A DNA stretch of 64,000 nt, from assembly GCA_030603365.1 (NCBI GenBank), contig JAUVXV010000011.1:79307-143306 (forward strand), in the 5' to 3' direction. This document shows positions 1,018 through 12,455 of the stretch, piece by piece; position 1 is the first letter of the stretch, and each line of letters starts with the position of its first letter. The position numbers were made by a program, and so were the translations under genes. The notes below the pieces were generated by a model, which saw only the letters and a program-made list of their open reading frames with translations, was not told where the DNA came from and searched no databases. This stretch comes from Candidatus Heimdallarchaeota archaeon. GTDB taxonomy: Archaea > Asgardarchaeota > Heimdallarchaeia > Heimdallarchaeales > Heimdallarchaeaceae.

Positions 1018-1842
1018 TTATTCATTCTCTAATTTCTCGATTAACTCAACTAGAGGAAGGCTATGTGCTGCGATATTTGTCCCGAGATCGTAGTATTTTG
1101 AACCTTCAACAGCCTCATGAATTCCACTGGTTATTTCAGCAGCATGAGCTTTGTCTTTTTCAGCTGCTACAAAGATGCAATTTCCTTTCACTTTACTTAG
1201 TTGTTCATCAGTTATTTTGAATTTTCTTTGGATAAGCATGGTTTTCCTGACACGACGGATATTATAACTATCAAAATATCCCCAGTATTTTTTTGCTTGT
1301 TCCTTTTGGCTTCTATCTAGGTAGATATAACGAATAATGAATTTAGCTATTGGTTTGACGAGTAAGTGCCAAACAGGACGGGTATTAATATAAACAAATG
1401 GCCAGGTATAACCTGGAACTTCAAGTCTAAGAACAGGTCCAATCATATAAATTGATTTGGGTGACATGAGACCCATACTCATGGCTAGCAAAGTAAAACC
1501 TGCTCCATAACTTGAAGCAATCATCAGATAATCTTTCAACTGTAGGAAGTCGATAACTTCAGCTATATCACGAGCAAATCTTTCAGGTGAAAAATCAGGC
1601 TTTTTACCTAACTGAGCAGTATGCTTTTCTCTAGTTTCAATAACATAAATTCTATAATTCTTCATCATCTCTAGAAGTACTTTATCCCATGCACTTGGTA
1701 AACTACCAAAACCAGGTAAGAGAACAAGAGTATCTTTTATTTTACCTTCTGGTTCATAGAAATGAACCTTAAGTAAATCTGTCTCAGTATCACCTACCTG
1801 AACATATTGAGAAGTCGCGTATTGCTCAAATTCGGAACTCAT
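1018..1842 (-). CDS. alpha/beta-fold hydrolase
   Basis: LLPGFGS oxyanion-type motif, ASSYG nucleophile elbow, AEKD and C-terminal AAH positions match the Ser-Asp-His triad layout. Confidence 0.8.
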   Translation of the reverse strand: MSSEFEQYATSQYVQVGDTETDLLKVHFYEPEGKIKDTLVLLPGFGSLPSAWDKVLLEMMKNYRIYVIETREKHTAQLGKKPDFSPERFARDIAEVIDFLQLKDYLMIASSYGAGFTLLAMSMGLMSPKSIYMIGPVLRLEVPGYTWPFVYINTRPVWHLLVKPIAKFIIRYIYLDRSQKEQAKKYWGYFDSYNIRRVRKTMLIQRKFKITDEQLSKVKGNCIFVAAEKDKAHAAEITSGIHEAVEGSKYYDLGTNIAAHSLPLVELIEKLENE

Positions 1843-10005: not shown

Positions 10006-11310
10006 TTAGAGATTTTTGATAATTTCTCTGAGAAGATTCATTCCTTCATCGATTTCTTCTTTATTTACATTCAGATAAGGTCGAAATCGAATAGTCTTTT
10101 CACCACAACCAAGAAGCAGGAATTCTTTGTCATAAGCTTGAGTTAGTATTTTATCTCGCATTTCTGAAGAAGGTAAATCAAAAGCAATCATCAAACCTAA
10201 ACCACGAGCATTTGACACCTTATCAGGAAATTCTTCTTGTAGCTCGTAGGTTTGTTTAAGCATATACTCACCCCTTTTTGCTGCATTATCAACGAGCTTT
10301 TCTTTCTCTATAATTTCAAGATACTTATTTGCTCGAAACATATCTACAAGATTTCCACCAAAAGTACTATTAATTCTACTACTCTCCTCGAAGACATTAT
10401 TTTCTATTTCTTTTACTCTGTTTGAAGCTAGTATTCCACTGACTTGCAACTTTTTACCAAAACTGATTATGTCAGGATTAGCTTTTTCAAAGTGCTCAAA
10501 TGCCCAAAATTTACCAGTCAATCCTACTCCTGTTTGAATTTCATCGTAAATTAAAAGAAAGTCATGCTTATCAGCCATTTCACGTAATTTTTGGAAGAAT
10601 TGGGGACGAAGATGATTATCTCCACCTTCGGATTGTATGGGTTCGACTATCAAGCAAGCAATATCATCACCATACATGTCTATCGCATCATGTATTTCTT
10701 GACAACTTTTTTCCTCAGCCATTACAATTTGTTCAAAATTATCTTCAATAGGGAAAGTAACTTTAGGGCTGGAGACTCGAGGCCATTTGAATTTTGGAAA
10801 ATATTTTATCTTTCTAGAATCGAAGGTATTAGTTAAACTAAGAGTATAACCTGAACGTCCATGAAAAGCTTGCTCAAAATGAATTACCTTACTCCCAACT
10901 TCATCTTCAAAACCTTTCTTGAAATTATTCCTAACCTTCCAATCAAAAGATGCTTTAAGTGCATTTTCAACAGCAAGAGCTCCTCCACTAATTAAGAACA
11001 AGTTAGGGAGAAAATCAGGTATTCCAACTCGACCAAAAGTTTCAACAAAATCACCCATCTCGTCTGTATAAAAATCTGAACTGCTTGGTTTATTTACAGC
11101 TACAGATGCAAGTTGATTCAGAAATTCTTTCTCAAGCATATCTGGATGATTAAACCCAACTGGAGATGAAGCAAAGAACGAAAAGAAATCTAAGAATGAT
11201 TTACCAGATTTCTTATCAACAAGTCTACATCCTTGACTTTTTTCTAAATCAACAATCATGTTAAAACCGTCAGCAAGCATATATTTTCCTATTTTCTCGA
11301 TAGCATCCAT
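10006..11310 (-). CDS. lat: L-lysine 6-aminotransferase (class III PLP)
   Basis: FLDFFSFFAS, NKPSSSD, GGALAVENALKASFDWK, FHGRSGYTLSLTNT, EPIQSEGGDNH, FGKK and SRINSTFGG. Confidence 0.93.
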   Translation of the reverse strand: MDAIEKIGKYMLADGFNMIVDLEKSQGCRLVDKKSGKSFLDFFSFFASSPVGFNHPDMLEKEFLNQLASVAVNKPSSSDFYTDEMGDFVETFGRVGIPDFLPNLFLISGGALAVENALKASFDWKVRNNFKKGFEDEVGSKVIHFEQAFHGRSGYTLSLTNTFDSRKIKYFPKFKWPRVSSPKVTFPIEDNFEQIVMAEEKSCQEIHDAIDMYGDDIACLIVEPIQSEGGDNHLRPQFFQKLREMADKHDFLLIYDEIQTGVGLTGKFWAFEHFEKANPDIISFGKKLQVSGILASNRVKEIENNVFEESSRINSTFGGNLVDMFRANKYLEIIEKEKLVDNAAKRGEYMLKQTYELQEEFPDKVSNARGLGLMIAFDLPSSEMRDKILTQAYDKEFLLLGCGEKTIRFRPYLNVNKEEIDEGMNLLREIIKNL

Positions 11311-11348
11311 TTACAGAACTCTCCTATGAGAGCATAAAAATTTGAATG

Positions 11349-11356
11349 TTTATAAA
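11349..11356 (-). promoter_or_regulatory. TATA box of lat
   Basis: TTTATAAA about 40-46 nt upstream of the ATG, with a GGAGAG Shine-Dalgarno-like site in the short leader. Confidence 0.55.
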
Positions 11357-11389
11357 TTGAACTGAATGACATCAAAAGGTGGTGGAAAA

Positions 11390-11479
11390 TGCCGATATGA
11401 AAGAGGAAATTTGAGTGGCTTATCAAACGGAGCGTTCGACCACTCATCCATCCTCTAGGGCAAGGGGTGCCTATCGGCA
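11390..11479 (-). ncRNA. Candidate structured non-coding RNA (90 nt, three-way junction)
   Basis: GC-rich intergenic island with nested helices UGCCGAUA/UAUCGGCA, GGCA/UGCC, AGAGGA/UCCUCU, UGAGUGG/CCACUCA and UCGAACG/CGUUUGA. The G-U pair forms only on the minus strand. A TATTTAAAA box is at 11499-11507 and UUUU follows the closing helix. Confidence 0.65.
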
Positions 11480-11591
11480 GTTACACAATGATTTTTCTTT
11501 TTAAATAGATTCTAATAGTTCTATCCGCAATTGTTAGAAACATTTTAGAAGTTCTTTTGGCAATTTTTTATACTTAAAAAGTTCTAAACGG

Positions 11592-12455
11592 ATGAGTACT
11601 ATGCGAGAAATCAAAATGTATGTTGGTTGTACGGGTTTTAACTATGAAGATTGGAAAGCACAGCATGGTTCTTTTTACCCACCTAAAATTGACAGATTTG
11701 ATTTACTTGAATTCTATTCTACACAATTCACTACTTGTGAGATTAATTCTACGTTCTATGCATTTCCAAAATTAGAAACTACTATTAGGTGGGCTAAATC
11801 ACTTCCTGATGATTTTGTTCTAACCGCAAAAATACCCAAATCAATATGTCAAGCTGATCTTCTTTCAGGTGTTGAGAAACCTCTAAATGATTTCTTAAAA
11901 ATTTTGCATCCTTTGAAGAAGAATTTAGGACCTCTAGTTATGCAACTTAAACCTAGTTTTGAAAAGAATGAAACAAATCTAGAACAAATTGTTGATTTCA
12001 TCGATTTTTTCCCTCATAATAACTATGAATTAATAATGGAGTTTAGACATTCAACTTGGTTCAATGAAGAAACATATGACTTACTCAATGAGAAGAAACT
12101 TGGAATCGTTAGTTCTTATCTTCCTTACATTAAATTTAATCTCTTTGAAGAAGTAAAAAAAGAGCATTTCTATCTAAGGCTGATAGGTTCTCACCAACAA
12201 CAAATTGGGTTAGGTAAGGAACTTAAAGACAGAACAAATTACATGGAAGAAACAGCTGATAATCTTCTACAAGCTTACCAAAACAATTCTAACAAATCAA
12301 CAGGATATGTGTTTATCAACAATCATTTTTCAGGGTATGCACCACCAGCTGCTAGAAAATTCAAAGAAATGTTACAAGAAAGGGATATTTCGATAGTTGA
12401 ACCAGCAAACACTGTGTTTAAGGGACAGCAAAAACTAGCAGATTTCTTTGGTTAA
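11592..12455 (+). CDS. DUF72 (YecE-like) TIM-barrel protein
   Basis: VGCTGFNY..W, EINSTFY, KIPK, EFRH.TW, YLRLIG and FINNH. Confidence 0.9.
   Translation: MSTMREIKMYVGCTGFNYEDWKAQHGSFYPPKIDRFDLLEFYSTQFTTCEINSTFYAFPKLETTIRWAKSLPDDFVLTAKIPKSICQADLLSGVEKPLNDFLKILHPLKKNLGPLVMQLKPSFEKNETNLEQIVDFIDFFPHNNYELIMEFRHSTWFNEETYDLLNEKKLGIVSSYLPYIKFNLFEEVKKEHFYLRLIGSHQQQIGLGKELKDRTNYMEETADNLLQAYQNNSNKSTGYVFINNHFSGYAPPAARKFKEMLQERDISIVEPANTVFKGQQKLADFFG

Follow-up and report, generated by a model that had tools for sequence, protein, structure and literature searches.

A conserved small RNA gene in one Heimdallarchaeia family and its predicted role in masking ribosome-binding sites

The window analyzed here is the whole 64,000-nucleotide stretch of DNA (G000:C12:79307-143306, where G000 is the source genome), and positions given without a contig refer to it. 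On its minus strand, the window carries what is very probably a real, conserved and unannotated small RNA (sRNA) gene of one Heimdallarchaeia family. The reading that we prefer, at a probability of roughly 0.45 and on entirely computational grounds, is that this sRNA acts in trans and masks ribosome-binding sites within a small regulon made up of a winged-helix (wHTH) regulator, the sRNA itself and a gene for a TPR protein. The features of the locus are as follows.

11523..11531, minus strand: conserved upstream box ATTGCGGAT, a putative transcription-factor site, kept in all structural groups of the sRNA and in genera g10, g11 and g13
11497..11522, minus strand: rest of the promoter block, with AGAACTATTAGAATC and the TATA box TATTTAAAA (11499-11507)
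11386..11479, minus strand: predicted sRNA transcript of ~94 nt, from conservation and fold, with putative ends
11472-11479 with 11390-11397, minus strand: helix P1, UGCCGAUA paired with UAUCGGCA; the 3' strand (11390..11397) occurs only in G000, G016, G020 and G023
11459..11471, minus strand: hairpin GGCA-CCCCU-UGCC, for which the 5' UGCC at 11476-11479 is an alternative partner
11460..11467, minus strand: C-rich motif CCCCUUGC, the proposed seed, inside the invariant ACCCCUUGCC
11402..11456, minus strand: long arm of three helices, with a 4x4 internal loop and a variable apical part (11419-11439)
11451-11456 with 11402-11407, minus strand: long-arm helix AGAGGA/UCCUCU, before the 4x4 internal loop
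11440-11446 with 11412-11418, minus strand: long-arm helix UGAGUGG/CCACUCA
11433-11439 with 11423-11429, minus strand: long-arm helix UCGAACG/CGUUUGA
11378..11389, minus strand: U4 run (11386-11389), then the tail CCACCACC
11592..12455, plus strand: divergent DUF72 gene (Pfam PF01904), the constant neighbour
10006..11310, minus strand: downstream gene lat, encoding L-lysine 6-transaminase (TIGR03251, 638 bits versus a cut-off of 520.8; Pfam Aminotran_3)

The helices, the hairpin, the TATA box and the UUUU run that the initial annotation had described are all present on the minus strand, and RNAfold yielded the same three-way junction for the sRNA, with a free energy of -40.5 kcal/mol. None of 200 shuffled sequences was as stable (shuffle mean -23.9 kcal/mol, z = -4.80), and the plus-strand fold of the same locus was weaker (z = -3.13). 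The locus is also the GC-rich island in AT-rich surroundings that had been noted, because the GC content of the sRNA is 0.50, compared to 0.25-0.32 in its flanks, 0.33 in the window and 33% in the genome. Judged from the distance to the TATA box, the 5' end of the transcript would lie near 11478. The U-runs place the 3' end tentatively at 11386-11389, or possibly at a second U4 run at 11374-11377. In the tail, UUUCCACCA is retained in group 1, and a CCACCA-like sequence is found in group 4.

The sRNA is present as a single copy in the source genome. BLAST and the covariance model R1 gave exactly one match per genome in 19 of the 25 genomes of the genus, and R1 gave no match in the other 22 genomes of the order. 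Two more copies in the genus (G003 and G006), both weak matches located 2 kb from the DUF72 gene, bring the total to 21 of 25. These copies fall into five structural groups. Read from 5' to 3', every group begins with UGCC, followed by GGC(A) and the invariant ACCCCUUGCC. Next come a purine-rich strand, which pairs with pyrimidines resembling UCCUCU, and a helix of (A/U)AGUGG with CCACU; after these follow a tip that varies, the tail GGC/GGGCA and, finally, a T4-T8 run. Most homologues terminate in T5-T8 runs, and the source genome in only U4. The first 39 nt of the sRNA are 95-97% identical where the DUF72 proteins are only 73-82% identical. The sRNA was searched for and not found in G014, G019, G022, G042 and G044, the assemblies of which are 76-89% complete; the searches in G042 and G044, as well as those for further box promoters, returned coding-sequence false positives only. 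In G001 (L045, G001:C206:1-2563), a sixth genome within this range of completeness, the promoter block lies beside the DUF72 gene with no sRNA after it, and the contig ends ~200 nt later. This gap could be due to a deletion, an insertion or an assembly break.

The DUF72 gene is syntenic with the sRNA in every genome that has the sRNA. On the downstream side, groups 1, 3 and 4 have lat, 8 genomes have an MFS transporter gene, and G023 has an ASST-like gene. This downstream gene varies between genomes, so the sRNA is no leader dedicated to lat. At the same site and behind the same promoter block, genera g10, g11 and g13 of the family have a small hairpin RNA that looks different, and the DUF72 proteins are 44-52% identical across the genera that retain the promoter and the position of the RNA. 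The RNAs of these three genera start with UGCCC and carry an exposed C-rich stretch (ACCCCUAG in g10, CCUCUU in g11 and ACCCCAAG in g13). In two of the three (g11 and g13), lat is again located downstream of the RNA, and the order RNA-lat is probably ancestral.

Structural conservation was counted on a covariance-model-guided alignment of 19 sequences. This alignment was adopted because RNAalifold on the raw MAFFT alignment, in which the apical part does not align, gave a poor consensus. With the reservation that pair counts obtained in this way lean towards the model, 93.6% of the cells were paired, versus 44-57% when the partners were slid. Eight pairs were altered on both sides, every one of them in the long arm. 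Homologues with compensatory changes were thus found as far as the long arm is concerned, and none of these changes fell in P1 or in the GGCA/UGCC stem; the latter is invariant, so it shows no covariation either way. In the long arm of group 2, CCAG/CUGG is swapped to UCAG/CUGA, and the sRNAs of G003 and G006 have an extra inserted hairpin, the stems of which are wholly different between the two. P1, which the initial annotation had described, is present in the source genome. However, together with the three-way junction, it is confined to four close genomes (G000, G016, G020 and G023), and the others close the molecule differently. In the minimum free energy structures of groups 2-5, UGCC and GGCA form a 5' hairpin, ACCCCUU is single-stranded, and (U)UGCC(C) closes the molecule by pairing with the 3' tail; outside the P1 genomes, it is the tail GGC / GGGC / GGGCA(A) that pairs with the internal (U)UGCC(C). 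By these predictions, the sRNA can be closed in two alternative ways, one of them being the three-way junction.

The sequence ACCCCUUGCC is invariant in the 21 sequences of the genus, and 14 nt of the sRNA are invariant with the stem included. The C-rich motif is predicted to be unpaired with a probability of 0.8-1.0 in most groups, and of 0.24-0.6 in group 2 and part of group 4, and the C-run is predicted to be mostly unpaired in either closure form. A conserved and, by prediction, accessible seed of the kind expected of a trans-acting sRNA was therefore found. The internal loop and an AAUUU stretch are also conserved, whereas the apical part, which had been thought tRNA-like, is the least conserved portion of the molecule. 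In group 2 sRNAs (e.g., L049:1501-1605), the 3' tail GGCUUAGGAU is similar to the target sites proposed below and is predicted to pair with the C-rich motif of the same molecule, which could be self-sequestration.

Rfam 15 gave no match at the gathering threshold, and, over 11300-11600, none that overlapped the element at E<=10, with riboswitches, 5S, SRP and ribozymes among the families searched. Seven homologous loci from other genomes gave no Rfam match at E<=0.01. A lysine riboswitch or other cis-regulatory RNA was rejected, as there was neither an Rfam covariance match nor a constant linkage to a regulated gene. A C/D-box or H/ACA guide RNA was also rejected, as the diagnostic boxes are missing. 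Regular-expression searches of 25 sequences showed that the C box RUGAUGA is absent at <=1 mismatch in 24 of them, and that CUGA occurs sporadically with no conserved D box; the tails before the U-run (..CGGCA, ..GGAUU.., ..CGGGC, ..AGGGC) have no ACA box. A small-protein gene was dismissed because the 33-codon ORF of the source genome stops after 3 codons in group 2. ARAGORN called 0 tRNAs in the window and, with introns allowed, 42 tRNAs in the genome, none of them on contig C12.

The ARAGORN calls in the source genome included many tRNAs with introns, and two of the calls were odd: a 786-nt intron was assigned to a tRNA-Met (C1:102329-103210), and the anticodon of another tRNA (C13:71399-71475) had four bases. 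No Phe, Asn, Pro or GUA-anticodon Tyr tRNA was called, the one Tyr call having the anticodon AUA, which suggests non-canonical introns or assembly gaps. Separately, a near-identical repeat with CAAGGGGTGC was observed at or near contig ends (C2:389, C16:389, C5:143743 on the minus strand and C15:186010 on the minus strand). This repeat probably represents an insertion sequence at which the assembly breaks.

The promoter block of the sRNA (11497-11522) is near-identical in 15 genomes of the genus, and its TATA box lies ~17 nt on from the ATTGCGGAT box. Taken together, the 35 nt upstream of the sRNA (ATTGCGGAT, AGAACTATTAGAATC and TATA) are as conserved as the sRNA itself. The earlier proposal, a new small RNA that would be transcribed from a promoter of its own, is supported by single-copy conservation across the genus, the promoter block, the oligo-T end, the lack of an Rfam family and the compensatory changes in the arm. 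A scan of G000 for the box plus TATA returned 7 matches, versus 3 in the reversed-sequence control. Only three intergenic matches to ATTGCGGAT were found in this genome, and these belong to the sRNA, the wHTH gene and the TPR gene. Over 33 nt, the promoter of the unlinked TPR gene is ~80% identical to that of the sRNA. The region 11502-11558 (minus strand) holds TTCTAA/TTAGAA repeats around the box, and the same AT-rich promoter region gave the only sub-threshold Rfam match, to the nematode miRNA family mir-1829 (30.6 bits versus a cut-off of 60), which is a chance match.

The wHTH and TPR genes were chosen by their promoter box, independently of any complementarity to the sRNA:

G000:C1:499048-499260, minus strand: wHTH gene (71 aa, Pfam HTH_24/MarR), with the upstream region to ~499370
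G000:C3:68546-69343, plus strand: TPR-protein gene (266 aa); 68458-69343 with its promoter

The wHTH protein occurs in 31 of the 31 genomes of the family and is 94-100% identical within the genus. Its promoter carries two ATYGCGGATA boxes, and two boxes are kept in the genus orthologues shown; the box is absent from the nearest wHTH relatives outside the family (52-58% identity). Next after the wHTH gene on C1 is a gene for a pyridine-nucleotide disulphide oxidoreductase. In the 5'UTR of the wHTH gene, GCAAGGGGA is invariant 8-12 nt before the ATG in the genus orthologues shown, and GCAAGGGG, the exact complement of CCCCUUGC in the sRNA, is located at -9 in every one of them. The 5'UTR of the TPR gene has GGCUAGGGG nine nt before the ATG, which matches CCCCUUGCC at 8 of 9 positions. 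Among the genus TPR orthologues with an assembled upstream region, the promoter box is kept in all and GGCUAGGGG in most. Both genes carry GCWAGGGG, which is complementary to the sRNA motif, nine nt before the ATG. The source genome has 34 copies of GC[AT]AGGGG, and only at the wHTH and TPR genes is an ATG located exactly 9 nt downstream. An 8-mer complementary to the motif region was found within -25..-1 at only 9 of 11,035 candidate starts. In the genomes where the sRNA was not found, the regulator retains its G-rich site wherever the upstream region was examined, which covers all but the g10-type site of G042.

Between genera, the sRNA motif and the regulator site co-vary:

Genus g1: sRNA motif CCCCUUGC, regulator site GCAAGGGG
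Genus g10: sRNA motif CCCCUAGC, regulator site GUUAGGGG
Genus g11: sRNA motif CCUCUUGA, regulator site UGAAGAGG
Genus g13: sRNA motif CCCCAAGU, regulator site UUAUGGGG

The cognate assignment of motifs to sites gave 29 of 32 pairs and was the unique best of the 24 permutations, four genera setting a floor of 0.04 on the p value. A conserved and co-varying complementary target site was thus found, at the computational level only. The cruder measure, a matrix of duplex energies across genera, was not cleanly diagonal, and a genome-wide scan of duplex energies returned many G-rich coding sites that were stronger than the proposed targets. The TPR sites vary with the sRNA unchanged (GGAG in G004 and GGGU in G021), and the TPR site of g10 fits poorly. 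In group 2, the motif is predicted to be partly sequestered by the tail of the sRNA. The complementarity between the sRNA and its proposed targets spans only 8 nt and coincides in part with a Shine-Dalgarno-like G-run, the conservation of which could have reasons of its own.

The mechanism that we propose starts from a stand-alone gene that would give rise to a structured sRNA of ~95-105 nt in Heimdallarchaeia. Transcription would start ~20 nt downstream of the conserved TATA box, with the ATTGCGGAT box upstream of TATA, and the transcript would end in the oligo-U run. The stable long arm, together with a short 5' hairpin or closing helix, would present ACCCCUUGCC in a loop or linker. From there, the motif is predicted to base-pair in trans with GCAAGGGG, the putative ribosome-binding site of the 71-aa winged-helix regulator gene, and less perfectly with GGCUAGGGG of the TPR-protein gene. 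Such pairing would hide the site and reduce translation. Since the promoter box is common to the three genes, it is probably the regulator that drives the sRNA, which in turn would feed back on the regulator. We suggest more tentatively that the wHTH protein itself binds ATTGCGGAT and drives its own gene, the TPR gene and the sRNA, with the sRNA masking the ribosome-binding sites of both the regulator and the TPR gene. On this more tentative reading, the sRNA feedback circuit would be specific to the one Heimdallarchaeia family.

A stand-alone structured sRNA could also act in another way, either by binding or scaffolding proteins or through other targets, such as helix 18 of 16S rRNA, in which case the match to the regulator would be incidental. 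We consider this rather unlikely, even though the same evidence for an RNA gene applies to it. The 14 invariant nt, stem included, are more than the 5-8 nt that a seed needs, and the conservation of the internal loop and the AAUUU stretch also speaks for such a role, as does the best non-self duplex of the sRNA in the genome, which is formed with 16S rRNA (15 bp with a 2-nt bulge, -30.2 kcal/mol). However, the 16S stretch is invariant in the family, whereas the sRNAs of g10, g11 and g13 retain only UGCCC(U). Moreover, neither the complementary motif at -9 of two other box-bearing genes nor the co-variation of motif and site would be explained. The sRNA part of this duplex is GGCACCCCUUGCCCU (11457-11471, minus strand), which is complementary to AGGGCAAGG-cu-GGUGCC of the 16S rRNA (G000:C8 ~11123-11145, minus strand); the 16S stretch lies just 5' of the 515F site and is invariant in 17 genomes of the family. 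In the 23S rRNA, GGAAAGGGGUGCC (G000:C8 ~1666-1689, minus strand) is complementary to the sRNA hairpin at 12 of 13 positions, where about one chance match per genome is expected for such a GC-rich 10-mer. Both rRNA complementarities are probably fortuitous and are not kept in other genera. It is improbable that GCWAGGGG / CCCCUUGC is instead, in either orientation, the DNA operator of a second regulator downstream of the three promoters. At each of the three box promoters, the motif does follow within ~60 bp, and a drifting DNA-binding specificity would also give co-variation between genera. However, both mRNAs hold the motif at a fixed 9 nt from the ATG and not from the promoter, and from locus to locus it varies in orientation and in its distance to the TATA box. 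Where g10 and g11 deviate, G is placed opposite U, which is tolerated by RNA pairing and is a mismatch to a DNA consensus. The fixed distance to the ATG and these G-opposite-U deviations mildly favour RNA pairing.

The initial annotation had offered a leader that regulates lat and ftcD-fchA. Control of lat (and ftcD/fchA) in cis, by a leader or riboswitch-like element that relies on read-through at the weak U4 stop, is quite improbable. It would account for lat being downstream in groups 1, 3 and 4 as well as in g11 and g13, and the alternative pairings UGCC/GGCA/UGCC/GGCA count in its favour; as only U4 follows the sRNA in the source genome, some read-through into lat is possible there. On the other hand, lat is replaced by an MFS transporter gene in 8 genomes and, in G023, by an ASST-like gene, the sRNA stays with DUF72 at one copy per genome, most homologues end in T5-T8, a TATA-like TTTATAAA is located between the sRNA and the start of lat, and no Rfam riboswitch matched. 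The claim of a lat leader is not supported in its original form, on account of the varying downstream gene, the constant DUF72 neighbour and the T5-T8 ends. A non-functional GC-rich remnant or chance hairpin, conserved by recent common ancestry only, would be in line with the narrow distribution in one GTDB family of 31 genomes. This is very improbable in view of the 5' part of the sRNA, which is conserved far beyond the neighbouring proteins, of the helices, which survive compensatory changes and insertions, and of the promoter and RNA position, which are kept across genera with DUF72 proteins at 44-52% identity. Finally, a tRNA-derived or tRNA-like element, or an unrecognized intron-containing tRNA, had been suggested by a likeness to tRNA-Ser. 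This impression, which came from the first reading only, was based on the D-arm-like GAGUGGUCGAACGCUC and the downstream CCACCA, and ARAGORN does miss several expected isoacceptors in the source genome. Nevertheless, ARAGORN made no call here with or without introns, Rfam gave no tRNA match at E<=10, there is no T-arm, and the D-arm-like stretch belongs to the variable apical part, which is wholly replaced in groups 2-5. The tRNA reading is effectively refuted.

For a trans-acting sRNA that masks ribosome-binding sites, the nearest precedent is sRNA162 of Methanosarcina mazei, an archaeal trans-acting sRNA of about 100-250 nt with its own promoter, which also acts in cis as an antisense RNA (PMC3510493). 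The Heimdallarchaeia sRNA has no sequence or structure similarity to sRNA162. It also differs in that its interaction is predicted only, and in that target and sRNA share a promoter element, in a predicted feedback loop. RoxS/RsaE of Firmicutes resemble the Heimdallarchaeia sRNA in directing exposed C-rich motifs at G-rich, Shine-Dalgarno-like target sequences; the C-rich regions of RoxS pair with G-rich targets (PMC5419742). We count as a further likeness that the expression of RoxS/RsaE is under a dedicated transcription factor. However, RoxS/RsaE are bacterial and have several C-rich regions, whereas the Heimdallarchaeia sRNA has one invariant C-run and no homology to them (Rfam negative). 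Archaeal C/D-box and H/ACA guide RNAs are similar in forming a small GC-rich island in an AT-rich genome and in the 12-15 nt complementarity to rRNA that is seen in the source genome. In contrast to these guides, the sRNA has no C box (24 of 25 sequences), conserved D box or ACA, and the rRNA complementarity is lost in other genera. In the LuxO-Qrr and OmpR-OmrA/B loops, which are bacterial and Hfq-dependent, the sRNA is activated by the very regulator whose mRNA it represses at the ribosome-binding site. Compared to these loops, the link between regulator and box suggested here comes from motif sharing only.

Full-text searches of the literature returned no relevant paper on sRNAs in Heimdallarchaeia, and post-transcriptional regulation in Asgard archaea is essentially uncharted. 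The present analysis provides a concrete sRNA gene together with its predicted regulator, its promoter element and a pair of candidate targets, and all of these are short enough for in-vitro tests without culturing the organism. Should the mechanism prove false, a new structured RNA family for annotation would remain. If it is true, Asgard archaea would have their first defined sRNA regulon, and the masking of ribosome-binding sites by an sRNA within a transcription-factor feedback loop would operate in the archaeal lineage closest to eukaryotes.
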